In this document: positions 1-61,629 of the stretch, in pieces | Numbering within the stretch: the first letter of the stretch is position 1 | Layout of the letters: every line of letters begins with the position of its first letter | Assembly (NCBI GenBank): GCA_965113315.1 | Contig: OZ220365.1 | Reading direction: 5' to 3' (one strand) | Length of the DNA: 64,000 bases | Origin: Podarcis vaucheri | Lineage: Eukaryota | Made by a program: the position numbers and the translations under genes | Notes under the pieces: generated by a model | The model's database searches: none | What the model was told of the DNA's origin: nothing | The model's input: only the letters and a program-made list of their open reading frames with translations

Positions 1-453
1 CTACAGCTTAGCCCAGTGAGGACTGTCCCTCTGAATGTCCTTTGGGCCACTATCTCCCCCCCCCAGCCATCTATATATGGGCAAGCCTGCCCTGCCTACA
101 AGGATGTGCAGGGAGCTAACCAAGTGGCAGTCCCCTGGGCACAGTGCCCTCCCCCATTGTCCTGCCCATCCTCCAAGATCTCACAGCTGCTGGAGGTGTT
201 GCAGCTTTTGTTTTATTGGCTCCACAGATAGATTGACATGGGAGTCTTGTTGCTGCCTGTCTTTCATTATTAAACATGCCATTTTAATAGGAATTAGAAA
301 TAGATTTTTGTTACCATAGGCTCAAGGCATTCACTTTTTGTAAAAGGCATCTGTAGTCATTTGCTCTGAGTCATAACATTTATTAGATGTCTCTTAGGGG
401 ATTGAACTGCTATTGGATTTTTAAAAATACTTTAAAAGCATTTGACTGACTCT

Positions 454-456
<3 letters not shown>

Positions 457-505
<49 letters not shown>
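457..505. repeat. (TA)n microsatellite, left flank of palindromic insert
   Basis: Pure TA dinucleotide run seen directly. Confidence 0.98.
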
Positions 506-508
<3 letters not shown>

Positions 509-770
509 GGTTTTGGTATCTTCGGGTGTCTTCCCGTGTAAGAGTAGGGGTGTCTGGGCGACGTTTCGACGAGGTCTCACTCGTCATCTTCAGGCTGGTG
601 CTTTCGGCTTCTTGTTACTGGAAGTTCCAGTAACAAGAAGCCGAAAGCACCAGCCTGAAGATGACGAGTGAGACCTCGTCGAAACGTCGCCCAGACACCC
701 CTACTCTTACACGGGAAGACACCCGAAGATACCAAAACCTGCATTCCTGTACCCGTGAAAATCTACGAAA

Positions 771-772
<2 letters not shown>
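504..772 (+). mobile_element. Penelope-like retroelement terminus with inverted duplication (241-bp palindrome plus 28-bp unpaired tail)
   Basis: 504-623 is the exact reverse complement of 625-744 (1-nt spacer at 624). It contains a CTGAAGA..GAAA hammerhead core. Inverted pseudo-LTR arrangements with hammerheads are typical of Penelope-like elements. Confidence 0.75.
653..690 (+). ncRNA. minimal type I hammerhead ribozyme motif (mirror copy on - strand at 558-595)
   Basis: CTGAAGA (655-661), stem II GACGAG/CTCGTC (663-668/675-680), GAAA (681-684), then C-GTC cleavage triplet (686-688). Stem III is palindromic with no loop; stem I is only about 2 bp. Confidence 0.65.

Positions 773-816
<44 letters not shown>
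773..816. repeat. (AT)n microsatellite, right flank of palindromic insert
   Basis: Pure AT run seen directly. Confidence 0.98.
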
Positions 817-818
<2 letters not shown>

Positions 819-2030
819 AACATTAGGAAAGCCTAATTATAAATTGTTCTTTATTTCACAAAATTGCCTGCTGCAACAGCCACACCAGGAGATGAAGCAG
901 ATTTCCAAATTCAGAGATTGTTAAAAAGGTGCTTTTAATAAAACACAACTAAATGGCTGGCTTAGGAAGCAAGATACCAATCAGGAGAAAATGAATCTCC
1001 TCTCGGAGACCCATAAAAGCTCTATGAGGCTATATCCAACAATAGTCTCTATTTGCTTCACCATGGCATACCATGGAAAAGGCTTGGACCAGGGAGAAGG
1101 GAGGCTGCATGGACAAGCTGATCCTCTGCTCTTGTATACTGGGTGCCCATGACATGCAACAGGTGTGGAAGGTGGAGCCAGAATCAGCAGTGTGGATGGA
1201 GCAGGAACATTAAGGAGCTCTGAAAGCCCAGCAAAGCTCCAGAACCAACTTCTATGATCACTGTCCTCCCATGATCATCTTTCTGGTCACTGCCTGTGCC
1301 TGGGTGATGGCTTACAGCTAGCTTTTTCACCTTTCTCCTGAGTAGGTCTTTCCTTCCAGGTAGCTCCTGTACTGACAGCCAAACAGAGGGTCCTCCTGCG
1401 GCTCTGGGTTGCCACCATTCTCCTGAGACCTTGGGGGTAGGGAGAAATAGGGTTCTAGGTTAGACATTTTAAATACCTGTGTTGCCAATGACCAGTTTGC
1501 AAATTAAGCTCCCGTCTGGAAAATCAGCAGGATTCAAGGGCAAAAGCCTAGGACAAAATAATTGCTATCAAAGTATACAAGCATGGGCATTCCACAAGTG
1601 GTGGGGGGCATAAAGTAGAACCTCTCTCTGAGAAAGTTTAGACCAGTTTCCCTGTTTCTGTGGGGACATTAGAAACTCTGTGATCAGGAAAATTTGAGTT
1701 TCTCTGCCCTGTCTCTCCAAAGGAAGAGGTGGGAAGCTGCATGGAAGAAATGCAAGAATCCTACTTTGAGGCATGGTTCCTACTTCCCTATGGAGCCCCC
1801 AACACCCCCACTCCCTTCTTAACCTGCATAGGTCATTGCAGTCATTATTGTCCTATAAAATGTTTCATGTGGTGGCTGCCTGTTTATTAACTACGGTGAC
1901 ATATTTTGGGAACTGGCACTCCAATATGCACATGCCTTCTTCCTTTCTTATGGTTGGGTTAATATGAACACAATATTCGACTCAAGGCCTCTGGGTCTCC
2001 TTTCTTTCCAAGGATAATAGTGTTGTGTTG

Positions 2031-2163
2031 CAGTAGTAGATAGGTAGCCGTGTTGGTCTGCCATAGTCAAAATAAAAAAATTCCTTCCAGTAGCACCTTA
2101 AAGACCAACTAAGTTAGTTCTTGGTATGAGCTTTCGTGTGCATGCACACTTCTTCAGATACAC
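2031..2163 (-). mobile_element. short Penelope-like non-autonomous insert with hammerhead motif
   Basis: 12-bp TSD AGTGTTGTGTTG at 2019-2030 and 2164-2175; second copy at 45779-45923. Confidence 0.8.
2124..2161 (-). ncRNA. minimal hammerhead ribozyme motif
   Basis: Minus strand reads GTAT-CTGAAGA-A-GTGTGCATGCACAC-GAAA-GCTC-ATAC: stem I GTAT/ATAC, intact core, palindromic stems II and III, CUC triplet. Confidence 0.75.
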
Positions 2164-2177
2164 AGTGTTGTGTTGGA

Positions 2178-2310
2178 CAGGGATGGAGAACCTGTAGCCC
2201 TCCAGTTGTTCCTAGACTACAACTCTCCGTCATCCCTGACCGTTGGACATCCTGTCATGGGCTGATGACAGCTGGAGTCCAACCACATCTGCAGGGCCAC
2301 AGGCTCCCTA
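2178..2310. mobile_element. degenerate hAT-type palindromic MITE
   Basis: Resembles the 136-bp MITEs at 32789 and 61436 (gccctccag..gactacaact..catccctgacc..catctgcagggcc). Confidence 0.6.
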
Positions 2311-3369
2311 ATCTTCATGCAGGAACTTGCAAGGAAAGGAAGGGGGAATTCTGTTTACCATCCATAGCACAAGAAGCCCACAGAAATGCAGAAAAGTGAG
2401 GAGGCCAGTTCTTTGCAGTAGCTGTTTTCTTTTACCGTAGGCACGTTTCCAGCATCGTCTTTTGATGAAGAGAATGAATAACAGCCTGTTCTTTCATGTC
2501 TTTTCTTTGATCACATGCCAATTTCCATTATGATAATAGGGGAACCATCTCTCTACTGCAGAGCAAATGACAGGATAGAGGAAAGGGGGAGGGGACAGGC
2601 AGCCCAAGAGGCACTTGAGCAACAAGACACATTCTGCTTTGATATGGAGCCTGGTTGACCATTTTAGCATGCATTGGCAGCTAATGTGTTTTCAGAATTT
2701 CCTTACCTCTTGATAGGAATATATACAAGGACCATGCTACTTTATGCTAAGAGAGTTTATTCCAGGGTAGTTTGATCCTTTGTATGGACTCCTGAGCCCA
2801 TACTGGGCATTCATCTCTAATATGTAGGGGAAGAAATGGTGCCATGCTCAATACCCCACCCCCCATCCTCATCTCTCTGGCCTCACAGACTGCACCCTCA
2901 GACCTTCACATGTAGCTTCCATTGAGAAAACGGCATGACAAACCTGTTCAGTGTACCTGTTCATATATCTGCCTTTGTGTACATGTGCTGGAAGGCTATG
3001 CTTGGTTTAGGAAATTAGTGTAGTGTCTTAGTAGTTAAAAAACTAAGCTGAGAACTGAAAAGTACTTGTTTTAAATCCCACAGATGACGACAGTTCAATG
3101 GATGGTGTTAGACAAGTTGCTGTCTTTCATTCATAGTCTCCTTCTGCAATTGGTCCCTGTAACAGTGAACTCAGTTGCTGAATGCCAACAGAGCAAAAAT
3201 AGTGCCACTGAAAAAAACAAGAGGGTCTGAGAGAGGTAACAGGGTGCTCAAGAGAACCCTGAGATTGCCAGTGTAAAATAAAAATTAAAAATACCAGCAA
3301 CTAAGAGGACCAAAGGTCAATGAGGATTCCGCATATTTAGGAGTTGAGTACAAAACTGTATGTAGGGAT

Positions 3370-3946
3370 AGTAGGTGGAATGACCTGTTTGAGTGCCTTA
3401 CATCTTGGGTGCCAAGGCCCGATGAACCGAAGTTCCCTAATGGATAATAAACACACACGGACACGAGTATTTAGGTTTATGGGTTCAAATAGGCCACAAC
3501 TATATTGGATACAGATGTAAGCGGTTTGGCTTAGGCATTGGCTATATCTTGACTATACTTGTCTGCAGGGAGTCCATCTAAGGGTAAACCACCGATAGGG
3601 TGAGCCCTATGACTTACATCAAATAGGGGCACTACGAGGGGTCCCCGTTGGGGTCATGGCATAGCCCTAGCCCACTTCTGGGCATCAGACAGAATCCACA
3701 CTCCTGGATCCCTTTAACAGGATACCCTTAATGAGGAGGGGCAGGCAGAGGCTACAACCTCTCTTCCATACAAACAAAGGCTTACCCAATGCCTAACTGA
3801 GAGGAGGGCTCCCCGGCCACACTGCGGTTTATATTTCCCTTGGCCACACCTCCTGCTGGCACTGATTGGACAATGGGACCATCCCTGAGTGGGGCCCCAC
3901 CCAGCACCAGCAACACCGCCCACCAGAAAAGGTGAGTGGGCTTACA
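3370..3946 (-). mobile_element. solo LTR
   Basis: Minus strand starts TGTAAG, then CCAAT box, TATAAA (~3827-3832) and an AATATA-GTTGTGGCC polyA-like signal (~3493-3507). Possible GGAT TSD (3366-3369/3947-3950); left boundary uncertain. Confidence 0.6.
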
Positions 3947-3954
3947 GGATCCTG

Positions 3955-4290
3955 AGAATCAAAACAAAGCCATTTTACAAAATTCACACTTCTCTGAACT
4001 TCACAATGCAGTTTTCTCATCAACCCGTGTTTGCAAAAAAATCACATATTAGGGGAAAGTGTGCATAAGAATGCACATGCTAGTGAAAAATAGCATTAAA
4101 AGGCATTATATTAAGGAAAATGCCTTGCAAAAACATTACTTAAAACTGCATTTAAGAGGTTTAATTAGAAGAAATTCGCACTAAGATGCTGGTGATTTTT
4201 TGTAAATAGCTGCAGAAATGTGGAGAACTGAATATAAGAGTGGAAAAATGAGGCCATACGAGAACCAAAATGGATAGGTCCCTCCACCCC
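3955..4290. mobile_element. old AT-rich DNA transposon fragment (same family as 36324-37103 and ~25930-26033)
   Basis: Shared segments such as aaatgtggagaactgaa..aaga..gaaaa and aaatggatag recur at three loci in the window. Confidence 0.55.
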
Positions 4291-5331
4291 AAGTCATAAT
4301 AAGTGCAGAATTGTCTATATACATGCTAAATATTATAACTGACCTTGGGTTTCCAAGTGAACTTTCCACATGTGCAAACAAAACCCTCACATAATTAGAC
4401 GTGATGTATGCACAAATTTCATGCAAAACTCTACATGTGAATTACTGTGGTGTTGGTAATCTTTAACATGTGAAGCAACCATTGGCTGATATTGTTATGT
4501 ACATTCCTCCAGTTGTCTAACTGTCCCTGGTTATTTCTATTAAAATTCACACAAACCTTTCGTAATACTGTACAACTTTGTCTGAATTTCTTCTTTATTG
4601 TGGTTGGCAAAGTATAGGTTTTTATTACTATATTCTCCCCTGTCCTGGGAATAAACGCTGCTTATTTTGTGCTCTCTTGTATTAATGCAGATTTCCATTA
4701 TTTCCATGGAGACTTGGCTGGTGTTTGTTTTTACCTAAGAGAGAAAGGAAGAAAGCCACAGGCAGACCTTATTCATGTTCATGCTGTTCCACAAAGGACA
4801 GGAGGGAATTCTGTGCACTTTCAAGTTGAAGACTCAAAAGTAACAAAAAAACAGATTTTCATTTCCAGCAATAAGATTAGAAGTGAGTATTGTTGGGCAG
4901 AGCAAAAACATTTGTTTTAAAAGCAGTTTTGCATTCAGGCTCCATGTGCCAGGCTTGGCAACTGGCAATCTATCATATTTTGAGGCTTTTAGAGAAATGT
5001 GCTTTTCTGTTCTGGCAGACTAAGCTCTGATTTGTCTAAATCCTGCTGAAAAGTGTTTTTTAAACTAGTGAAACGCCCACAGCTGATACCACCTTCGCTA
5101 AAGCAAAACTCAGAGCAATGCTCAGAATAATAAAGCTTCCATTCAGTCATTATATCCCCCCATAGAAAAATCAATCTTTATGTGACAGTTGTACACACAG
5201 AAAGAATAGTTTTATTATTTTCGAAGTAGTAGCAGGCAATCATTCATCATAGCATCTATCTTCCGACTTGTTTATCTAGCTTATTACTTCATAGTTTCTG
5301 TGCTTTCTTGTATTAATGCAGATTCCCATTA

Positions 5332-5625
5332 CCGTAGATTCCGGCGTATTAGGCGACTGGATGTATTAGACAACCCCCCAAATTGGCAGGTGCAATTTGG
5401 GGGTTCGTCTTATAAGCCCAGTTGCCTAATAAGCTGGGCAGCTCTATGCCGGGAGAAAGCCGCCCGGCGTAGAGCGGAGCACGCCACCCCTGCTGCTGCT
5501 TCTGATGCTTCTGAGCCGCCACAGCAGCAGCGGGGGGGGGCGGATACCCGGCGTATAAGACGACCACCAACTTTTTAACCTCTTTTCCGGGGTTAAAAAT
5601 TCATCTTATACGCCGGAATTTACGG
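5332..5625. mobile_element. Tc1/mariner (pogo/Tigger-like) MITE
   Basis: TIRs CCGTAGATTCCGGCGTAT / ATACGCCGGAATTTACGG; TA duplications at 5330-5331 and 5626-5627; CpG-rich. Confidence 0.9.
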
Positions 5626-5888
5626 TATTTCCAATTTTACAAGCATTGGCAAGATTTGGGGATGCAGCAGTTGCCCAAGTTTGTCTTTCCTTTGGAAGGA
5701 GGTCACTGGAAGTTTACAGTGTAAATGTAGTATTTTAGTTAATTTGCAAATAAACTGATTGTTTGTAAGTGAAGGCACAGCTTAAACTCTTCAGTAGACT
5801 ACCAGAGGATGTAGCCAGCATCCCAGAATGCTTTTAGCTCACAGAATCCATACTCAGCTCTCTCTTGCTCTCTCTGTCAGACTATAAT

Positions 5889-6139
5889 CAGGGGTCAGCA
5901 AACTTTTTCAGCAGGGGGCCAGTCCACTGTCCCTCAGACCTTGTGGGGGGCCAGACTATATTTTGAAGGAAAAAAATGAACAAATTCCTATGCCCCACAA
6001 GTAACCCAGAGATGCATTTTAAATAAAATCACACATTCTACTCATGTAAAAACATGCTGATTCCTGGACAGTCTGCGGGCCAGATATAGAAGGCAATTGG
6101 GCCGGATCTGGCCCCCGGGCCTTAATCTGCCTATCCATG
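5889..6139. mobile_element. hAT (Charlie-like) MITE
   Basis: Starts CAGGGGTCAGCAAACT and ends TGCCTATCCATG; subterminal GGGCC motifs; imperfect TSD around a CTAG/CTAT core. Confidence 0.75.
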
Positions 6140-7375
6140 GACTAGATGTTACTTTAGCTCCATAAGTGCACCCTCAAGTTTAGGGTGTTTTTGTTTATGC
6201 AAATTATCAGTGCTACCCCCACCCCATGCATATTAGGATTCTAGCATGGAGGGAGGTAATAAATCTAAGGAGGCAATCATATAAATTAGTATATGTAAGT
6301 TTTATGTGAACCTGTACTTTCTATTGTGCTTTTTGCAGCAATGCAACCCTGTCCACAATACACATATCTGTCTCTTTCTCTCGGATATGCATACACACAG
6401 ACACACACCCACACACCAGGAGGATTGAATTAATACACTGTATGTGTGCATTTTGTGAAGAGGGAAGATGCTGATTGCATGCTATCTGTACACTGGCCAG
6501 AAAGCATTGGAAATACGGGTTTTTATTAATTCATCATACGTGCCTGAATAATCAAGGCATATACAGCAGTCACCGCTAATTAAAGGAAGCTGTTAACTTT
6601 CAATACTGGGCAGGAAAGAAGTTACTTATTCAAGGTTGCATAAAAGAGCTATCGGAAGCATAAAGTAAAAAATCATAAAATCCAGATCAAATGGCCAATA
6701 CTGAATCAAATTAATTATCTGAAAACACTTGGTGTTTACAGAATTTAGGGAATTTACATTTCTGATTTCATAACTAAGGAATAAGAAAATAATGTCTCCA
6801 GGCAGCCCTCCATTTAAGTACCAATATTCCGTTGGTCGTGTTTGTGATAATTTTAGGTCATGGATATACATCCACAAACTAACATATGTACAAACAGGAT
6901 AGTTTCAAAAACGTTAGCTTCAGAATCCCTGACAATTATATTAAGACATAAAGATAGCACAAATGAAATTAAAGTATATGGTACAATTTGTTTTTGATAT
7001 GTATTAATAAAATAAAAAATTGAGGGTGGGGGAGAAAGGCAAATAATACTTTGTTCTAGCTAGAGAAAACATTAGGACTGAGTCATGAGAAGGGAATGAT
7101 TTTTTTAAAAAGGATTTTATTTGCTTTTCATAATACATTGCAATAACAGACAAACTAATCTGAGCAAAAAGAAAAATGCAAAGTCCTCTCTCTCAGGTAG
7201 ATCTTTACCCTTGTCCCACACAGAAAGAAGTGAACCTTCCCAGCTCTCACCTGGGATCTTCAAGGAGAAGATTTGTGTTATGTACTGAAGTTCTCACCCT
7301 TGGCCAGCAGGGGATACTGTAGATAGTTTTCACTCAGGTCCACATATGTAAATAAGGGATTGAAAGTGATGTTCA

Positions 7376-8107
7376 GTGATTGACAAAAAAACAGGATTCC
7401 AGGTGGAAAAATCGAAACTTGAGACAGAGTTGTTAGAACCAAAGACCAAGTTATTATCGAGAATGTATAACTTGCTGCTTAAATGGAACACTCAGGATGA
7501 GACAGTTAAATCAGCTATGATAAAATGGGCTCAGGACATTGGTTATAATATCATGTCTGAAGACTGGGAGAGGTTATGGACCACCGGTATGAAGTTTACT
7601 GCATGCAATGCTCTGAAAGAAAATATTATGAAAATGGTATACAGGTGGTACATGACCCCGGTCAAGCTGGCTAAGATATACCATTTGTCCGATAATAAAT
7701 GTTGGAAATGTAAGGAAGCTGAGGGGACATTCTTTCACCTTTGGTGGACTTGTCCAAGATTGAAGGCCTTCTGGGAAATGATCTATAACGAGTTAAAAAA
7801 GGTGTTTAAGTACACCTTCCCCAAGAAACCGGAGGCCTTCCTTCTGGGCATTGTCGGCCAGAAGGTGTTAAAGAAGGATAGAACTTTTTTCATGTATGCT
7901 ACTACAGCAGCAAGAATTCTTATTGCTAAGCATTGGAAGACTCAAGATTTGCCCACACTGGAGGACTGGCAGACGCAATTGATGAACTACATGGAACTAG
8001 CCGAGATGACTGCAAGGATCCGAGATTTGGGAGAAGTGGTAATGGAGGAGGATTGGAAAAAATTTAAGGACTATCTGCAAAAGTATTATAAGTTATATGA
8101 ATCTTAA
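7376..8107 (+). CDS. L1 ORF2 C-terminal region (zf-RVT-type zinc finger); truncated, no genuine start codon
   Basis: 243 uninterrupted codons containing CWKC-x8-H-x4-C (CWKCKEAEGTFFHLWWTCP..FW) and AARILIAKHWK, typical of non-mammalian vertebrate L1 ORF2 C-termini. Confidence 0.85.
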   Translation: MIDKKTGFQVEKSKLETELLEPKTKLLSRMYNLLLKWNTQDETVKSAMIKWAQDIGYNIMSEDWERLWTTGMKFTACNALKENIMKMVYRWYMTPVKLAKIYHLSDNKCWKCKEAEGTFFHLWWTCPRLKAFWEMIYNELKKVFKYTFPKKPEAFLLGIVGQKVLKKDRTFFMYATTAARILIAKHWKTQDLPTLEDWQTQLMNYMELAEMTARIRDLGEVVMEEDWKKFKDYLQKYYKLYES

Positions 8108-8499
8108 GATGCCGTATGACTTGGAATGTTAGCCCCAGCAACGAAAGTGGAGTATATATGAAATTGGATAATATTTATGAAAAAATCAAAGTTTAAATGG
8201 GTAAAAATGACAATGGGTTATATTTTAAGAGTAAATGGAAAATAAGAGATTTAAACTTAAACTGCAATTGAAAGTACAAAGAAACACATGAAACAAGGTT
8301 ATAATTTGCTGATAACTTTATTGTCAAGAATGCATTATGTGGGAGATGTGGGGAAGTCCGATAGAAATCTGAAATAAGTTCTTGAAATGGATGTGATTTT
8401 CTGTTTTTTCTTTCTTTCTATTCTCTATGTTCTTTCTCTTTTCTGTTTTATCTGCAATTTGGAAAAAAAATGCAATAAAAATTATTATAAAAAAAAATA
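7383..8499 (+). mobile_element. 5'-truncated young L1-clade LINE
   Basis: 22-bp direct repeat TGAAAGTGATGTTCAGTGATTG at 7361-7382 and 8500-8521; AATAAA at 8474 followed by an A-rich tail; open ORF2 C-terminus. Confidence 0.92.
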
Positions 8500-8914
8500 T
8501 GAAAGTGATGTTCAGTGATTGGATAGTTACAGGAATTTGTTACAGTTGTGTTGTAGTGGAGCTCTATATAAGCAGGCTGGCTGAACCCTTCAGTTCAGTT
8601 CTGTTCTGGCCTGTGAATAAACAGGAGCCGTTTGAAGAATCGCTATGTAGTCTTATATGTTCACCCACAGCTTAACAATTTGAAAGCTGAGTTAGAACCA
8701 AAAGGAGTTAAAAGGAGCAAGGAAAAACAAAATATTTCAATAACTGGGGGGAGGGGGAGGACATGCCAGCATTGGATGGGTAATACATTTCAAAGGGCAC
8801 TGTTGGTAAATACATGTACTGAATCATACATGATAAGTGAAGGTATATGAAGGAAAACAATAGCATGGGGAAGCTTAATATCTGTATAATTTTAGATTAT
8901 GATTAAAATGTCTT

Positions 8915-9200
8915 AATGGCAAATGTATCTCTCTTAATATGAATGGCTTACATCACTCAGTCATGAGGAACAAGATCTCCTGGCAGATAAAAAGACAAGA
9001 AGCAAGTGGTGTATGTCCAGAGTAAATACACATAGCATAGAAAGACAGTCATTTATTGGGAAGATTCATAAAAGTCAGCTATATCATTTATGTGCGTATA
9101 ATAAAACCAAAGGAGTTGCTATGGTGGTCTTGCGGGAGCAGGATATGGGAATGTAAAGATCAATACAGAAAGATTGAAGGAAGATATTTGACAAAAGAAA
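8915..9200 (+). pseudogene. decayed L1 APE endonuclease N-terminus
   Basis: Translates across frameshifts to CISLNMNGL..RNKI, KTKGVAM and EGRYL, matching the S-x-N-V-N-G-L, KRGVAI and D-x-EGRY endonuclease motifs. Confidence 0.6.
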
Positions 9201-15059: not shown

Positions 15060-16360
15060 CCCCTGTTTTTTTTCTGTTCTCCCAGAGAAAATGTGATAAC
15101 CAAGATTTATAACTTAGCTATCATTAATCACCACATAATTATCTCTTGTTGACAGAGTGTCAAGAAGAGACATCTAGTCCGCCATCTTTCCTCTCTGGAA
15201 TTCCAAAATTGAGTGACTGCTGATAAGTGATCATGCACAAAACACCAACTTGGATATATCATTCTTCCTGGCAGAGGCTAAGAATTTAGATTTCAGTGTC
15301 TTTCTCTTGATTAAGAAATGATTAACAGCTATTGGATGGAAATTCAGGAGTATTTTGTGTTTTCTTGAACATCTGATGCAACATGAAATTGATATTGGAT
15401 GCTACTAAAACTCATTTTGGGGGCCGGGGCCTTTTAGGGTGAGATCTTTCATAACTCAACAAGCAGAAAAACAACTTTTTGTAAAAGAATGATACTCCCC
15501 CCCGAGATAACACCCAAACACTCACTACATAGTAATCTGAACATATATAAGAACTGGACACATATAGAAATCTTATTGATCTTCTGAATACACAGGAGGC
15601 TGATAAAGCCTTGACATTTACAAAGCACAAATATTTTCAAAAGGACAACAAAGCCAATATGTTATTAGCTCACAAATCAGCATGGGGACAGAAAAGTAGA
15701 TTAATACTAACAATCCGTGTGGGGGGGGAGGAACAGGGGGAGAAAGACTGCTACTAATAATGAATGGAATTGTGTTAGAATTTGCTGCACTTCATAAATC
15801 TCCAGATCAACCCTCAAAAGTTAGAATTAATTAATGAGTTTCTTGGCAAGCATCATATTCCTAAACTTTCTAAACAAGATCAGCAACAGTTAAGTGCTAC
15901 CATTTGCAAGAATGAAATACAATAGGTCATCCAAAACCTGAAGCCAAATAAATCTCCAAGATTAGATGGCTTTCCTGCTGAGTTTTATAGACCATTTGCC
16001 AACCTGCTACTGAATTTGCTACAGACTCTTTGTAATGAATGTTTCGACCTCTTCTGAAAGGCCAAATTCATGGAATGAGGCTGTAATTATTATGCTTCAT
16101 AAGAAAGATAAAGATCCTAAGTTGACAGCTTCATGTCATCCAGAATCTTTATTAAATCAATATTATAAGGTCTTGGCAGCCATTTATGCTAAAAGGATAA
16201 ATACTATAATTGCAAGCTATATCCACAACTCATCAAGCTTCATTAGAGAACAATTACTCTTAGGAAGCACTACAAAAGCTGTCCGTATTGTCAGTGAGTG
16301 TGGTCGTAGTAAGGAAATTCTTTTGGCTTTTATTGATGCACATAATCCTTCAATCATGTC
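15060..16360 (+). pseudogene. decayed L1 ORF2 (end of endonuclease to start of RT)
   Basis: ISDHA; KALTFTKHKYFQKDNKANMLLA; KSPRLDGFPAEFY; SWNEAVIIMLHKKDKDP..SLLNQYYKVLA (compare YRPISLLN.DYKIL). Contains multiple frameshifts. Confidence 0.8.
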
Positions 16361-16749
16361 CAGTGAGCAAAACTTAGAAGTTGGAACATCTTTGTTTGGA
16401 ATATTTAGTTTTGGAACATCAAGATTATACAGGGCATTGTTTTACCGACGTAATTTTAAAAGCAAGGAAGAGTCACTTCTTTTAGCTTGTGCCCAAGCCA
16501 GACATTGAACAAAACAGTGCGCTATACTTGTTTTTACATATCTCAGTGTTTGGGAAGCAGATATGGCAGCATAATTGGTGTTATAATTATATGCTTTAAG
16601 ACCAATCTGAGAGGTTCAAGGTATCCAAGTCCTGAAAGGGATGCCTAGCTGCATTTGGGGGTGTAGTTTTTCTGGTTGCAATGTGAACTGTTGACTGGGG
16701 ACAATAGTGCATCATTTTGTTACTACCTATCTTCTGTTATCATTTGAAA

Positions 16750-16816: not shown

Positions 16817-17146
16817 CTTTATTTGCTTGTCTTGATTACTGTGAATCAGCTGAGCACTTGGCAACTAAGGGGTGGCCAAGACTTAACAAAATAACATTAA
16901 TATTCCTTGATGGCTGTGGAAATGTCACCTTCCAGAGGCCAGGAAAAGACATCTATCAGAATTTGGAAGAGAAAGCTGAACAAATTAGATTTATGCCATG
17001 CTTATATATTAGGGGAGTGGTTTTTAGCTATGGTAACTAAATGGAACCTTTGTGCTTAGAGACAGTATAGCTTTGACTGCCAGTTGAAGGGAGACAAAAA
17101 CCATGGTGGAGGAGCCAGAAGAGCTGTTCATTTTGAGCACCTTGGA

Positions 17147-17395
17147 GAAGAAGAAGAGTTTGGATTTGATCACCCACTTTATCACTACCCGAAGGAGTCT
17201 CAAAGCGGCTAACATTCTCCTTTCCCTTCCTCCCCCACAACAAACACTCTGTGAGGTGAGTGGGGCTGAGAGACTTCAGAGAAGTGTGAGTAGCCCAAGG
17301 TCACCCAGCAGCTGCATGTGGAGGAGCGGGGAATCGAACCCAGTTCACCAGATTACGAGTCCACCGCTCTTAACCACTACACCACACTGGCTCTC
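17147..17395 (-). mobile_element. tRNA-derived CORE/MIR-like SINE (Squam3-like)
   Basis: Minus strand has an A box (TGGTGTAGTGG), a B box (GGTTCGATTCC), a CORE-like GTGACCTTGGGC and a (TTC)n tail; four near-identical copies in the window. Confidence 0.9.
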
Positions 17396-24370: not shown

Positions 24371-24710
24371 TGCTAGCTAGGGGTGATGGGAGTTGTAGTT
24401 CAACAACATCTGGGGACCCACAGGTTGAGAAAGACTGCCCTAAGGCAAGCCCCCTGGAGAACTTACCGCCCTCCAGATGTTTCTGGACTGCACATTTTGT
24501 CACTCCTTACCTACTGGCCATGTGGCTGATGAGAGTCCAACAACATATGGAAGGCCACAGGTTGCTCAGCCGTGCCCTAAGGCAGGGGTTCCCAAACTTG
24601 GTTCTCTAGCTGTTTTTGGACTACAGTTCCCTGATCACTGGTCCTGCTAGCAAGGGATGATGGGAGTTGTTGTCCAAAAACAGCTGAAGAACCAAGTTTG
24701 GGAAACCCTG
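24371..24710. mobile_element. three tandem hAT MITEs (partial ~24371-24437; 24446-24574; 24583-24710)
   Basis: Separated or followed by CCCTAAGG (24438-24445, 24575-24582) and CCTTAAGG (24711-24718). The third has TIRs CAGGGGTTCCCAAACTTGGTTCT / AGAACCAAGTTTGGGAAACCCTG. Confidence 0.85.
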
Positions 24711-41059: not shown

Positions 41060-42110
41060 GAAAGGTTCAGGCAGGATCATGTGGAAAAGGTTGGTCCTTC
41101 TAATAGCTGAGTTCCAAGACATTTGGACCTTCATGGGTAATGACCAGCACTTCGAATTTTGCCTAGAGACACTAGAACCAGTGTAACTGTTTAAGAACTG
41201 GTGATATCCATTCAATGTGACTGGTTCTAGCTTAGCCCTACGCTGTGTACCAACTGATGATTCCAAGAAATCTTCAAAGGCAGCTCCAATGTATTGCAGC
41301 AGTCCAGCCTCAAAGTTCCAAGCCCATGGATAACAGTGACCAGACTATTACTGCGAGAAGGGATGTAACCAGAGGCAGCAGCCTAAGAAGATAAAAGACA
41401 TTGTGTGCTGTGGAAATGGCTTGGTTCCATCTTATGTGGGATTCAACAGCAGCCATAAGCTACAAAAGCTGAGCCTTCAAGGCAACCTCATCCATAACAG
41501 CATGGCTACCACACACCCTCTGCCGGCCAGGTGAACCACCTTTCACCAGGGCATCTGACTTACCTAGAATCAACTTCCTTTTGCTGGCCCTCTTCCCATC
41601 CATTACAGCTTCTACACACCGATTCCTCACTCTCCATCAACTCAGCAGTTACATGTAGAAGAAGAAGAGTTTGGATTTGATATCCCGCTTTATCACTACC
41701 CGAAAGAGTCTCAAAGGGCCTAACATTCTCCTTTCCCTTCCTCCCCCACAACAAACACTCTGTGAGGTGAGTGGGGCTGAGAGACTTCAGAGAAGTGTGA
41801 CTAGCCCAAGGTCACCCAGCAGCTGCATGTGGAGGAGCAGAGACGCAAACCCGGTTCCCCAGATTACGAGTCTACTGCTCTTAACCACTATACCACACTG
41901 GCTAGATGTTAAATAACATGGTCCCACTGCATTAATGTTATAGAGCTGAGCTGTAGGCCTCTTAGCATCACCTTCTAGAACAGGCCATCCAGATAGAAGT
42001 GGAACCACTGCAATATAGTACGGTGCCTCTAGTCTCCAACAAGGATGGCCTATCCAGAATAATACCATAGTTGATGGTATCAAAAACCACAGGAGAATCA
42101 GCACATTGTG
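41060..42110 (-). pseudogene. decayed L2 LINE ORF2, interrupted by a SINE
   Basis: Minus-strand remnants of FDTIN.GI (~42060-42085), RLDYCN..GLPLK (~41270-41312) and HW..V...KFEVLVITH (~41130-41185). Confidence 0.65.
41657..41903 (-). mobile_element. tRNA-derived CORE/MIR-like SINE (Squam3-like)
   Basis: Near-identical to 17147-17395. Confidence 0.92.
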
Positions 42111-44460: not shown

Positions 44461-44719
44461 GAAGAAGAAGAAGAAGAGTAGTAGTTTGGATTTGATATCC
44501 CGCTTTATCACTACCCGAAGGAGTCTCAAAGTGGCTAACATTCTCCTTTCCCTTCCTCCCCCACAACAAACACTCTGTGAGGTGAGTGGGACTGAGAGAC
44601 TTCAGAGAAGTGTGACTAGCCCAAGGTCACCCAGCAGCTGCATGTGGAGGAGCGGAGACGCGAACCCAGTTCACCAGATTACGAGTCTACTGCTCTTAAC
44701 CACTACACCACACTGGCTC
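44461..44719 (-). mobile_element. tRNA-derived CORE/MIR-like SINE (Squam3-like)
   Basis: Near-identical to the other three copies; (TTC)n tail. Confidence 0.92.
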
Positions 44720-44834
44720 AGTTGATAGAGCATGAGACTCTTAATCTTAGGGTCATGGGTTCAAGTCCCACACGGGGACAAATAGTCAGACTAGATGATC
44801 CTTGTGGTCCCTTCCAACTATTCTGTCATTCTAT
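44716..44834 (+). mobile_element. tRNA-Lys(CTT)-derived SINE with CR1 3' tail
   Basis: GCTCAGTTGATAGAGCATGAGACTCTTAATCTTAGGGTCATGGGTTCAAGTCCCAC matches tRNA-Lys-CTT. It is followed by the CR1 tail GACTAGATGATCCTTGTGGTCCCTTCCAACT. Confidence 0.85.
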
Positions 44835-45778
44835 TGTGGGGGGTGAAAATTAGGGAAATGTTTTTACAAAGTCACTTAAGCCCTGAAGCTGAAGCTTCAT
44901 TAGTTTCATAGTAGATCCGCCCCGGTTGCGGTTCGTGTTCTTCATAGTTTATAGATCACATTTTAAATTCAGCCATGGCTTATATAGCATTCTGCACTCG
45001 CTCTTTGAAGGAAAAGTTCTCCAAATAAGCTATGTCATTGCTGGAGCCTTCAGGATTTCTAATCAAATCTTGTAATGTTTTCAATTTATACCTCCCTCAA
45101 GCCGCTAGATATGGTTTATGACCTATCAGCCCTTCAGAGAGAGGTAGCTCATTTACTCAGCGCTGACTCTTCCTTCTCCTGACCAAAACTCATAATCATT
45201 TATCATTAAACAGAAAATTATTATCAAAGTGTATCTTTTCTGTATTGTGAAGGAACTTGTTTTAAAATGGAGAGTGTCCAGCATTAACCGTTTCTGTGCC
45301 TCACAAGTCAGCATGATACCTGAATACTTCATTAATATTTGCCTTAAGGAATTTTTGTCATAGATATACATGTACTTAAAATGGCATAGCAAAATATTGC
45401 TAGAGTCGCTTTTCACATTACATTTTGGGCATATGGGCCAGCTTTCTGAGAGTCACATAAGAGTCTATGAAAATGTGTATCATTTGAGGGAGAAGACTAG
45501 TTTTGCTTAAGTAATGGTGGTTTGATTTTTAAGAATTTATATAGATAGCAGCAGCATGCTTAGCTTTCTGACATCAGTGCTCCTAAACACCAGTGCTTCC
45601 AAAGTAGTACAGGAGTTCCCTAGTCTGTGAGAGCCAGACACAGAAACAACATTTCTGAAATAATGCCTTCTTCTCCTGTATCATCCTACCTGGATGAGAC
45701 TCTCCCTTCCAACTCTACAGTTCTATGATTCTATATACCTTCTAATTATGTTATAAATTGTATGAGGGAAAAAATTAT

Positions 45779-45923
45779 AGATAGGTAGCCGTGTTGGTCT
45801 GCCATAGTAAAAAAAAAAAAATCCTTCCAGTGTATCTGAAGAAGTGTGCATGCACACAAAAGCTCATACCAAGAACTAACTTAGTTGGTCTTTAAGGTGC
45901 TACTGGAAGGAATTTTTTTATTT
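45779..45923. mobile_element. short Penelope-like insert, internally inverted, with a mutated hammerhead (45832-45869, + strand)
   Basis: 12-bp TSD GGAAAAAATTAT at 45767-45778 and 45924-45935. Same sequence as 2031-2163 but with the 5' part inverted; GAAA changed to AAAA at 45858. Confidence 0.82.
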
Positions 45924-45969
45924 GGAAAAAATTATGTTCCTGCTTATGATGTATCATGTTTTATATTAC

Positions 45970-54440: not shown

Positions 54441-54471
<31 letters not shown>

Positions 54472-54497
54472 ACACACACACACACACACACACACAC
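54441..54497. repeat. (TG)n-(CA)n inverted compound microsatellite
   Basis: Seen directly; palindromic around 54469/54470. Confidence 0.95.
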
Positions 54498-57001: not shown

Positions 57002-57276
57002 GAAGAAGAAGAAGAAGAAGAAGAAGAAGAAGAAGAAGAGAAGAAGAGTTTGGATTTGATATCCCGCCTTTCACTCCCCTCAGGAGTCTCAAAGCGGCTA
57101 ACATTCTCCTTTCCCTTCCCCCCCACAACAAACACTCTGTGAGGTGAGTGGGGCTGAGAGACTTCACAGAAGTGTGACTGGCCCAAGGTCACCCAGCAGC
57201 TGCATGTGGAGGAGCGGAGACGCGAACCCGGTTACCCAGATTACGTGACTACCACTCTTAACCACTACACCACACT
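57002..57276 (-). mobile_element. tRNA-derived CORE/MIR-like SINE (Squam3-like) with expanded (TTC)n tail
   Basis: Homologous to the other three copies, with subfamily differences (CCTTTCACTCCCCTCAGG). Confidence 0.92.
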
Positions 57277-60074
57277 ATTCTGGGCGCTGTGGTTTGTTAA
57301 GGGTTGCTGGGAATTGTAACTCTGCTTGGGGTAAACTCTAGTGCCCAGGATTATTTGAGGGTTTAAAGGAGCAGAGTGTATACATGGCCTTAGGTGTAAG
57401 CCAGGTTGGGAAAACTGTTGCCTTCCCAAATGTTGGTAGACTACAACTGCCCCATTGCCCCTTCCCATTGCCCAGGCCAGCTGGGACTGAGGAGAGCCAG
57501 GACTCATCTACATTAGTAAAGAAAAAGCATTTTATATGCGTTATGACACCAGATGGTGCTATGGAGTTCCGTCTTCACCAATGTGATTTCGCACATTGAG
57601 GTTTACAACGCGTTTTCCCAAAATGCTTTTTTGATGCGTCTAGACCCAGCTTTGGTGTCCAAAACCTCTGGAGAGCCATATGTTCTCCATTCCCCTGGGA
57701 TTTAAGTGAGGGTGTTATTTCTAACAGCACGCGCAGAGGTAACTTGCCAGTGAATAGCACTGATTGACTATGCATGTTACCTGACACAAAAAAGGTGTTA
57801 ATTAGTTTCAAGTGATGCAATTGTGAATAAATTCAATATGCATGTGAATAAATAAAATTGTTCAGAAGCAAAATGAAAAACCACTTGGTTTTTTTTATGA
57901 TGCATGTACATCGTAACAAGCACCACCTTTCCTTCTTGTGAGCTCCCATTCAAGTATTTACGACTCTGCCTTTTATGAATGGCTGGTGAATGGTTGCTGG
58001 CTGGCTCTGTCTTCATTGCATGCCTGAATGTTGCACAGGGCATAGAGTTTGTATGTGCATAGAGAGAAACTATATATTAGAGAAAATGACTCTAGACTAA
58101 CCTTTCCCCTGACATGCTTGTTGTCTATCCACAGGGCTTTTGTGTACAGAAACCAAAAGTTTTCTATGTGCAGAAGTATTCATTTATGTGAATATCCCTC
58201 AGCGCTCTGAAACGGTTCGATCCGGACTCAGGTTTACCATCTAGGCCTATGTGTGCATGTGTACAAACACAACTACACAAATTATCAAGGCCTTGGGAAT
58301 AGGAGGACTCTCTGGAGATACGTATATAGATCCTTTCCCATCTTGTTCTCTCCAGTTCCCTCTCTCTCATTTTTCAGAGTCAGTATTCCAGCAGTAAGCA
58401 TACCGATGTTGATTTATCTCCTAATATGCTGCTGATGCAAAAAGTGACACATGTCCCATGCGGAATGACCTTGCAATCTAAATAATATTGAGAGAAGTGT
58501 GTCAAGAATGAGAAGCACAGGCGGCAGCACAGTGCAGGTTTCTGCATGTTTTTAAAAAATCAATTCATGATACCCAGGAAAATAGAGAGGAAAATAATTG
58601 AAGATGGGCTTGCTGCTGTAAACAGCAGCTTATATAGAGTCCTTCCCCTCCATAATATGACCACCATGTCCCGGTGCTATTATTAGCTGATGGCATTATT
58701 GATGACATCATACCTGCTACTGCTGGGGTGGAGGAATATGCAAGGCGATAACTTAAGGACATGGGCTAAGATGTTACAGAGGGGAAGAAGGTATCCCTGG
58801 TGTTTCGTTGTGACCTTATGCTTCTTTAACATGATTCATCCTTTGCAAGAGAGGAAATAAAAACTTGGCATGCAGTACCAAGATTTGCATTTCATCTTTA
58901 TGAACAGGTTGTCATAGTAACACAAAACCCAAAACTAAATAAAATTATTGTATTAGTCTTCTTTTGTATGGACCTTTATACCTCCTCTGTATACAAGACC
59001 ACACCATTCTGTTCCATATTAATTTATTCCAGAACAGTTTCCACCTGCAACCATTCCAGACTTGCAATCATTAATGTAGGTTAGAAGCCACACATCTGTC
59101 TGCATTGAAAAGTATTTTTGGAGGAAGTGATAAATCATATTTTGACATGTTTAGGCTCTCTGATATTAGACACAAATAGCTTGGCTCATTTGTCTCACAA
59201 CACAAGCTTATCCACATCTATTCAGAAGTGGGGCCCATTGAATTCAGTGAGGCTTTCTTCCAGGAAAGTGTGCAGACAGATTAGAGCCTTAAAGAGTATC
59301 TGTGTTAATTGAGCTTAAAAGTGACTACAGAAAATCAGAATCCAGTTTATTTTTTTAAACTATCCAAAAAAATTTAAAAATAATGAGGAAGGCCTTTAAG
59401 CACAATGAAATAGCATTAAATAAAATGTGGATAATGTATTTTGCCATCTGATCCTTACTTTAGTTTCTCATTTGTATCCCTTTTTTCTGAAAGATCTCAC
59501 AACAAGAAGAGCATTCCATTCCATTTTTTATTTCTGTACTGCCTTGCTACATTATTGTACTCAAGATGGCTGACAGTCCACAGAAACGATAAAATGTAAA
59601 ACAAAAACCACACTGCCGTCCTAACAGTTCAAAAGAGAACTAAAAGCAAGTTAACAAAATTCAGTAACCCATTTCTTACCTAGTAATAAATAGCAACAAT
59701 GAAACAATATTTGTAAAAAGGTACTCAGAGAGCACAAGGTTAGGAATTTGTTGAGGCTCTAAGTAAAGGTCTTCCCAAAGTAGTCCATCTGCTGTTGGAC
59801 TTCAGCTGATATCAGCCTAAGCCTGTGTGGTCAATAGTCAGGGATGATGGGAGCTGGCGTCAAAGACTTCTGGAGGATGCCAGTTTGGGAAAGACAAGCT
59901 GTGAGGTCATGAACATAGCCAAAAAGAATATTCCTCTTACATATTTTATTGCTCTACTGTATTGTGTATATATACCAGAGAGGTCCAACCAATTCCTGCT
60001 TCCCCAATATGTGCTTCTCTTTCAAAAGGTGTGTTTCTTTTTTAGACATTAATAGCACAAAACTATGTACCTGT

Positions 60075-61378: not shown

Positions 61379-61629
61379 TTTGATCCCCATATGGGGCAGC
61401 CACATATTCCTCCATTGCAGGGGGTTGAACTAGATCAGGCTTCCTCAAACTCAGCCCTCCATATGTTTTTGGCCTACAACTCCCATGATCCCTAGCTAGC
61501 AGGACCAATGGTCAAGGATGATGGGAATTGTAGTCTCAAAACATCTGGAGGGCCGAGTTTGAGGAAGCCTGGACTAGATGATCCTCGTGGTCCCTTCCAA
61601 CTCTACAATTCTGTGATTCTTTGATTCCA
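61379..61629 (+). mobile_element. CR1-tailed SINE fragment interrupted by a 136-bp hAT MITE (61436-61571)
   Basis: MITE TIRs CAGGCTTCCTCAAACTC / GAGTTTGAGGAAGCCTG; TSD AACTAGAT / GACTAGAT. The host sequence continues as a CR1 tail. Confidence 0.88.

Follow-up and report, generated by a model that had tools for sequence, protein, structure and literature searches.

A young palindromic insertion in a (TA)n tract of Podarcis vaucheri, probably composed of two Penelope/Poseidon-type element ends

Structure of the locus

The window analysed here is a single stretch of 64,000 nucleotides from Podarcis vaucheri (contig OZ220365.1 of assembly GCA_965113315.1), and the insert that concerns us lies close to its beginning, between the two halves of an alternating dinucleotide tract, (TA)n on the left (457-503) and (AT)n on the right (773-816). 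Positions 504-623 and 625-744 constitute a maximal perfect inverted repeat with arms of 120 nt around the lone central base G624, and each arm contains eight CpG dinucleotides, exactly as an earlier note on this DNA had claimed. Since the runner-up among perfect inverted repeats in the window (loop of at most 10 nt) has arms of just 28 nt, and consists of microsatellite, the 120-nt palindrome is far beyond chance. The centre of the palindrome is itself a short quasi-palindrome. TA tracts of at least 12 nt occur only twice in the window, at 457-505 (49 nt) and 773-816 (44 nt), both of them bordering the insert; the left tract is a perfect repeat up to 505 and so has two nucleotides (504-505) in common with the left arm. 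The outer flanks do not mirror one another (score of 19 against a random median of 18).

The palindrome may be described as two 5'-truncated arms that meet head to head at 624. The forward arm, with its tail, occupies 625-772 on the plus strand and is a candidate Penelope/Poseidon-type pseudo-LTR (pLTR) end, in which homology to a sea-krait sequence is firm from 634. It includes a minimal type I hammerhead core (655-688, with cleavage predicted after C688), the putative first 37 codons of the element ORF (661-771) and a terminal stretch of 28 nt (745-772) that is present on this arm only. The inverted arm (504-623, minus strand) is a copy of the same end without that stretch, and carries the mirror of 655-688 at 560-593. 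When folded as RNA, 457-816 forms one rod with a minimum free energy of -301.6 kcal/mol from which the 28-nt stretch is looped out, as the earlier note had envisaged, while the DNA hairpin of the palindrome is computed at -166 kcal/mol. The complementarity of the two tracts, to which that note also drew attention, is real though trivial, because (TA)n is self-complementary.

Identity of the insert

An ATG at 661, where stem II of the hammerhead starts, is followed by 37 open codons that reach the end of the insert; this ORF start had been missed by the earlier note. The anole Poseidon ORF likewise begins at hammerhead stem II (PMC11167929). In a search of 1.84 billion proteins, the 37 codons matched one, the coral-snake protein P0002 of Micrurus surinamensis (E 2.4e-4, 71%), and a profile built from these two sequences found three of 14 candidates, namely P0002, which is itself a member of the profile, P0003 and P0004. 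P0003 is the aberrant C-terminus of a major facilitator (MFS) gene model of the sea krait Laticauda, and has nine identical residues upstream of the ATG (634-660); P0004 begins at the same methionine as the insert ORF and continues as a long ORF. Searching with P0004 led to P0006 of Crotalus adamanteus, a protein of 377 aa (65%, E 8.5e-64, one of 397 candidates), which is identical to the insert at 21 of 37 codons (57%) when the two are compared directly. The relatives retrieved come from three snake genera and from one further record, P0004. P0006 contains a DKG motif at 283 and further motifs at 207, 354 and 365 that we take to resemble the N-terminal region of the reverse transcriptase (RT) of Penelope-like elements (PLEs). 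DKG is named as diagnostic for PLEs in PMC8557442. Poseidon-Ac of Anolis carolinensis provides a second comparison: its codons 33-78 agree with residues 32-77 of P0004 at 24 of 46 positions in a gapless hand count made without a tool, and in its RNA, as printed in PMC11167929, the end of the core and the position of the ATG are by eye the same as in the insert.

In none of the relatives was an RT core or a GIY-YIG domain reached. Pfam detected neither RVT_1 nor GIY-YIG in P0006, which ends early at 377 aa, and returned nothing relevant for P0001, P0002, P0004 and P0006; in the ESM Atlas, P0006 joined only DUF8422 clusters (0.96-0.97), with no named alternative; and its AlphaFold model, computed without an alignment, had a pLDDT of 42. 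A word-index protein search with a single 46-aa frame gave none of six candidates. Searches with blastn, nhmmer and tblastn disclosed no other family copy or ORF remnant in the 64-kb window. Two weak matches of P0006 to ribosomal protein S13 in a PDB sequence search (E 0.04) were taken as chance, as was one 24-residue match in bacterial and archaeal genomes (one locus among 98 pattern matches).

We are in little doubt, on these protein comparisons, that the insert represents a Penelope/Poseidon-type pLTR end, including the first 37 codons of the ORF, twice over in head-to-head orientation. The Penelope-like origin proposed in the earlier note thereby gains an ORF start that matches snake proteins and leads, through them, to a 377-aa ORF with DKG. 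The inverted repeats are near-terminal and the flanks are TA, which would also suit a MITE-like fold-back DNA element with a TA target in which the hammerhead is incidental. MITEs and fold-back elements are defined by symmetric terminal inverted repeats without a retroelement coding origin; here, the sequence corresponds to the ORF start of a retroelement, the tail makes the inverted repeat asymmetric, and single-orientation relatives stop at the tail end, such that we give this explanation hardly any credence.

Tail and arm ends

Counting from the ATG, C17 lies at +28; the end of the inverted arm is reached at +82 to +84, and that of the forward arm at +112. In Poseidon-Ac (PMC11167929), the RNA is cleaved 26 nt past the start codon and reverse transcription starts 111-118 nt into the ORF; there is a second RT start site, and a tail of 30-40 nt lies between both. 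Transferred in register, by eye, the first of these ranges falls at about 768-775 in our sequence. The matches of P0002 and P0003 both cease at the codon ending at 768 and the insert ends at 772, so the ends of three independent copies lie no more than 4 nt apart. The stretch confined to one arm measures 28 nt, or 30 nt with 743-744, which is at or just below the published 30-40. The 28-nt bulge, which the earlier note had correctly placed at 745-772 without recognizing what it was, is the tail known from Penelope elements, and the arm ends match the pair of sites at which anole Poseidon starts reverse transcription. The arrangement as a whole, that is, an inverted truncated copy placed head to head beside a pLTR, with junction palindromes and a one-sided tail, is described as typical of PLEs (PMC8557442 and PMC3846280).

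Age of the insertion

The CpG observed/expected ratio is 1.07 in 625-772 and 0.22 in the window, where only three of 432 fixed tiles of 148 nt have at least 10 CpG. Two changes resembling CpG decay are seen at the residue level in each of three of the four relatives, at sites that are intact here. The arms show no difference over 120 bp, bounding divergence at 0.006-0.0125 substitutions per site (95%) and age at about 2-12 million years for assumed rates of 1-3e-9 per year; palindrome arms can, however, be homogenised after insertion. Both CpG content and arm identity indicate that the copy is young, in agreement with the earlier note.

Hammerhead core and RNA folding

Each strand carries one hammerhead core of the form CUGAAGA-U-stem II (6 bp)-GAAA-CG-UC, at 655-688 on the plus strand and 593-560 on the minus strand; the earlier note, too, had put such a motif on each strand. 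On the plus strand its parts are CUGAAGA, the bulged U662, stem II (663-668/675-680), GAAA and a palindromic helix III (684-687). A minimal-hammerhead descriptor comprising core, stem II and palindromic helix III found three sites in the window, the two cores here and one of another family, where 0.01 are expected from 200 first-order Markov controls. The traits of minimal PLE hammerheads are thus present as regards the core, the bulged base 9/10.1, G10.1-C11.1 and the palindromic helix III. Helix I is the exception, since 4-5 bp are expected and only 2 bp (C654-G689 and G653-C690) are in register. Because of this 2-bp helix I, which resembles that of the D. virilis variant, we file the motif as a putative variant hammerhead core rather than as a working ribozyme. 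The Rfam hammerhead models, the use of which the earlier note had proposed, gave no match: among 48 Rfam matches at E<=10 in 400-900 none was to a hammerhead, 625-772 gave none, and no hammerhead reached gathering score in the whole window. Rfam microRNA matches were rejected, being all below gathering score and driven by hairpin structure.

The short helix I may be a trait of the clade, to go by analogy with the D. virilis hammerhead variant, whose helix I has 2 bp (PMC4209133), and with Poseidon-Ac, in whose printed RNA (PMC11167929) we count 3 bp by eye. Given that helix I is possibly short clade-wide, the parent element may still be cleaved; the Poseidon-Ac hammerhead is described in PMC11167929 as cleaving only with protein present. 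A candidate intron acceptor AG at 652-653, whose use in splicing would put another sequence in place of helix I's 5' strand, is a weak lead, and a pyrimidine tract is absent upstream of it. Such a replacement of the helix I 5' strand is reported for D. virilis in PMC4209133.

The earlier note had further suggested that a transcript of the locus would have to choose between a long hairpin and a ribozyme fold. This finds no support in the folding calculations. The sense core sits in the second arm whichever strand is read, and the antisense arm is therefore transcribed first from either strand. For RNA starting at 457 or 504 (and ending at 681, 692, 720 or 772) the probability of stem II is 0.0; for RNA starting at 600-640 it exceeds 0.99, with helix I falling below 1% once 720 has been made. 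Minimal PLE motifs are described as needing dimers (PMC4209133). There is one core per strand, helix I has 2 bp, and the computed stability of a hammerhead-like dimer (-19.2 to -20.3 kcal/mol) falls short of that of a pair of folded monomers (-21.2) and of the best co-fold (-27.0). No special stability was found in the 3' region (z -1.23, with 27 of 200 shuffles equally good). We propose, on the basis of these models, that the hammerheads are passengers here, buried by the 120-bp hairpin of any read-through RNA.

If transcribed, the palindrome would nonetheless yield a 120-bp duplex, and it is conceivable that the host has kept the locus as an RNA switch between hairpin (as siRNA or ADAR substrate) and ribozyme, or as a source of small RNA. 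The hairpin is very stable, transcripts starting within 600-640 do form stem II, and in Drosophila the siRNAs of Penelope fall in inverted regions (PMC3681739). This reading is opposed by the absence of stem II from transcripts starting at 457 or 504, by the lower stability of the dimer, by the low-scoring, structure-driven microRNA matches and by the surroundings, in which neither a host gene nor transcription is evident: Pfam gave no matches in 123 of the 133 ORFs of at least 38 aa in 1-9000, the remaining 10 having been left out because nine overlap the element or its repeats and one was scanned separately. The insert is also young, and we regard any such host function as highly improbable; the palindrome locus probably does nothing now. 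Young palindromes in (TA)n with a 1-nt spacer are possibly unstable sites and sources of dsRNA.

The probable (TA)n target

The arm without a tail stops within the element, at a point where the native sequence goes on into the tail, and the adjoining (TA)n must therefore have come from the target and not from the element RNA. Any target duplication would be hidden inside (TA)n, and none is seen beyond the tracts, where the longest shared word is 5 nt. Among the snake relatives, P0002 continues past the shared end into a (CA)n-type repeat of about 18 codons (HTHTHT) and P0003 into three (TA)n-type codons (IYI). These are the only two truncated relatives, read at the protein level, P0004 and P0006 being element bodies that do not count. 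Dinucleotide repeats of at least eight units make up 0.49% of the window. The locus itself was chosen for its flanks. The microsatellite targeting inferred in the earlier note is thus upheld to the extent that both truncated relatives enter dinucleotide-like codons, and qualified in that they are two in number, seen as protein only, and one of them is of (CA)n type. On balance, we favour a true preference of the family for dinucleotide repeats.

Alternatively, the (TA)n may have grown from a short AT site during or after priming, in a family that merely prefers AT-rich DNA, as does Poseidon-Ac, which according to PMC11167929 favours AT-rich DNA with a 5'-ATT-3' motif. Growth of this kind would accommodate the sea-krait copy, with its mere three repeat-like codons, better than the coral-snake copy, which runs into about 18 codons of (CA)n type, and it must also contend with the small fraction of the window that dinucleotide repeats occupy; we consider it possible, if the less probable account.

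Origin of the palindrome

A second PLE-like family in the window bears on how the palindrome arose. Its two copies, a plain one at 2031-2163 (minus strand) and an inverted one at 45778-45926, are 98% alike; each is flanked by a 12-bp target duplication, and they have an exact common 5' end six bases before the core, which implies that shared stops exist. The minimal hammerhead of this family differs, with a helix I of 4 bp, and its ends seem to resemble those of Neptune type. In 45778-45926, a long arm has the hammerhead and no tail, and a short arm has a tail of 30-33 nt and no hammerhead; a G has been lost from the GAAA box. These arms are not nested and overlap by 2 nt, and so folding back of a single cDNA cannot have made this copy.

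Several properties reported for the Poseidon_Ac protein in PMC11167929 suggest a mechanism: it cuts AT-rich DNA on both strands and extends them, it is predicted to be a dimer, it has two RT start sites without strand bias, and it employs an uncleaved RNA template. In our insert, both arms cross the cleavage site, hence the template was uncleaved at 688. We propose that a full element copy elsewhere would supply the protein in trans, which would nick both strands of the (TA)n. One 3'-OH would prime cDNA at +112 (772), while from the other synthesis would begin at +82-84 (742-744), whereupon both cDNAs would traverse the uncleaved hammerhead to about 625, and would be joined there through a shared stop or through annealing at a short native palindrome. 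We place the chances of two-strand priming as the origin of this copy at about even. Several observations count against it. The forward arm contains the whole of the inverted one and they stop no more than 1 nt apart, and for arms nested in this way two-strand priming needs either a shared stop or annealing at a native palindrome. At both junctions 1-2 nt are shared with the target, whereas initiation by Poseidon_Ac is reported as being without homology (PMC11167929). Moreover, the argument for two primings rests on another family and on one copy, 45778-45926.

Fold-back copying explains the nested arms more simply than two primings do. One cDNA, having extended from 772 as far as about 625, would have folded over on its short self-complementary end, been copied back to 744, and joined the left (TA)n via 2-nt microhomology; in a variant proposed in PMC3846280, self-priming occurs on an antisense template. 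Nested arms, a 1-nt spacer and a centre that is a short quasi-palindrome are all what this would produce, and PMC3846280 takes junction palindromes as a sign of self-priming. Yet it requires either a chance stop at the tail boundary (by our estimate, about 13 of 148 positions would serve) or an endonuclease cut, and the copy at 45778-45926, in which neither arm includes the other, cannot be made thus. Taken together, snap-back, copy-back and the antisense variant form a tentative alternative to which we assign about one chance in three.

Identical arms and a 1-nt spacer might equally be expected had a fold-back read, or a chimera at (TA)n, doubled a single 148-bp insert during assembly, and such structures do trouble assemblies (PMC8557442). 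Against an artefact, the mirror halts at the tail boundary, excluding both the tail and the right flank, and the outer flanks are unrelated; the build with a tail on one arm recurs in the second family of the window, within a clean 12-bp target duplication, and has already been published (PMC8557442 and PMC3846280). We therefore rate an artefact as very unlikely. Considered as a whole, the description of the locus as a real, young, non-coding insertion of the Penelope/Poseidon clade in (TA)n seems to us very probable.

The joint proposition, that a dimeric protein double-primes at both RT starts and that a squamate Poseidon-clade family targets (TA)n/(CA)n without a zinc-finger linker, is speculative, and we would sooner doubt it than assert it. 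If true, double priming would explain the inverted pLTR of PLEs, their junction palindromes and the one-sided tail without recourse to an antisense template. The dinucleotide preference, if it holds, weakens the idea that such a bias requires the linker zinc finger. The origin of inverted structures and that of microsatellite bias are both named as open questions in PMC8557442. Neither the two-strand-priming model nor a dinucleotide bias of Poseidon-type elements was found stated in the literature searched, of which some sources were available in part and subscription journals were thinly covered, and these two points may be new. The arm ends of the insert fall on the in-vitro RT start sites of a related element, making it a clean test case, and arm-end counts over genome copies could tell whether two-strand priming, fold-back or antisense self-priming is at work.

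Relation to known elements

The palindromic insert is ordinary for its class, its structure and opposed hammerheads having already been published, and its family may already be catalogued in Repbase or Dfam. The closest system is Poseidon_Ac (PAc) of Anolis carolinensis (PMC11167929), which resembles the insert in having an ATG at the start of stem II, an AT-rich target, cleavage 25-26 nt past the start codon, reverse transcription that starts some 110 nt inside the ORF, a tail between two start sites and a helix I that is short (by eye, 3 bp in PAc). It differs in that helix I has 2 bp in the insert, and in that the ends of the insert family adjoin dinucleotide repeats, of which PMC11167929 makes no mention; the first 30 codons are little alike by eye, so the family of the insert is not that of Poseidon_Ac. 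With the Penelope elements of D. virilis and Adineta vaga (PMC3846280, PMC8557442 and PMC2377424) the insert shares an inverted 5'-truncated copy beside the pLTR, a junction palindrome, a tail at one end only (31 bp or 30-40 bp there) and a pLTR that takes in the first ORF codons. Unlike them, it consists of two pLTR ends alone without the ORF body, is perfectly symmetric to 1 nt, and would have any target duplication hidden in (TA)n.

Metazoan PLE minimal hammerheads (PMC4209133) have in common with the insert the core, the unpaired base 9/10.1, G10.1-C11.1, a palindromic 15.2-16.2 and a long helix II; helix I is 4-5 bp there, against 2 bp here and in the D. virilis variant. In Schistosoma, pairs of minimal hammerheads lie 100-700 bp apart on opposite strands (PMC4209133), whereas in the insert no more than about 60 bp separate the two cores. 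Naiad, Chlamys and Neptune PLEs (PMC8557442) also insert into (TA)n/(CA)n in a manner that hides the target duplication; their bias is associated with a CX2-5CxxC linker, which is absent from Penelope/Poseidon elements, and Naiads, unlike the insert, have no hammerheads. Non-LTR retrozymes (PMC7229834; bioRxiv 10.64898/2026.07.22.740005) are similarly short, non-coding, derived from PLEs and hammerhead-bearing. They consist, however, of head-to-tail tandem units, where the insert has its two units head to head and a single core on each strand. A non-LTR retrozyme was rejected as a classification, since this calls for at least two head-to-tail units that each bear a type I hammerhead.

Other features of the window and its relatives

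The Laticauda models P0003 and P0005 (UniRef A0A8C5SFZ0 and A0A8C5SC99) are MFS-domain proteins whose last residues, at least 55 in number, read through an element copy, probably as a result of exonisation or of faulty annotation; what precedes the match, on its upstream side, may be pLTR as well. Elsewhere in the window, 54442-54497 is a perfect palindrome without a spacer, (GT)14 followed by (AC)14 in arms of 28 bp, possibly resulting from local inversion. An open frame of 245 aa at 7370-8107 (plus strand) had no Pfam match at E<=0.1, and we assume it to resemble the C-terminal part of a LINE ORF2. A decayed reverse-transcriptase fragment at 16014-16508 (plus strand) has a weak RVT_1 match (E 0.029) that is below the cut-off. 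The region 5320-5620 is CpG-rich (10-11 CpG per 148 nt), contains an inverted repeat of 11 bp, has a direct repeat in common with 4665-4700, and looks like a young non-autonomous DNA element. A short MITE-like fold-back family with imperfect arms of 58-74 nt is represented at 24573-24720, 32789-32924 and 61418-61589. Finally, a SINE-like repeat of 247 nt is present in four copies (17146-17392, 41657-41903, 44472-44718 and 57034-57280), 73-95% alike to the reference. A partial tRNA at 44714-44771 (plus strand, 37.8 bits), which ARAGORN did not find, is the sole Rfam match at gathering score in the window and is probably the head of a tRNA-derived SINE.
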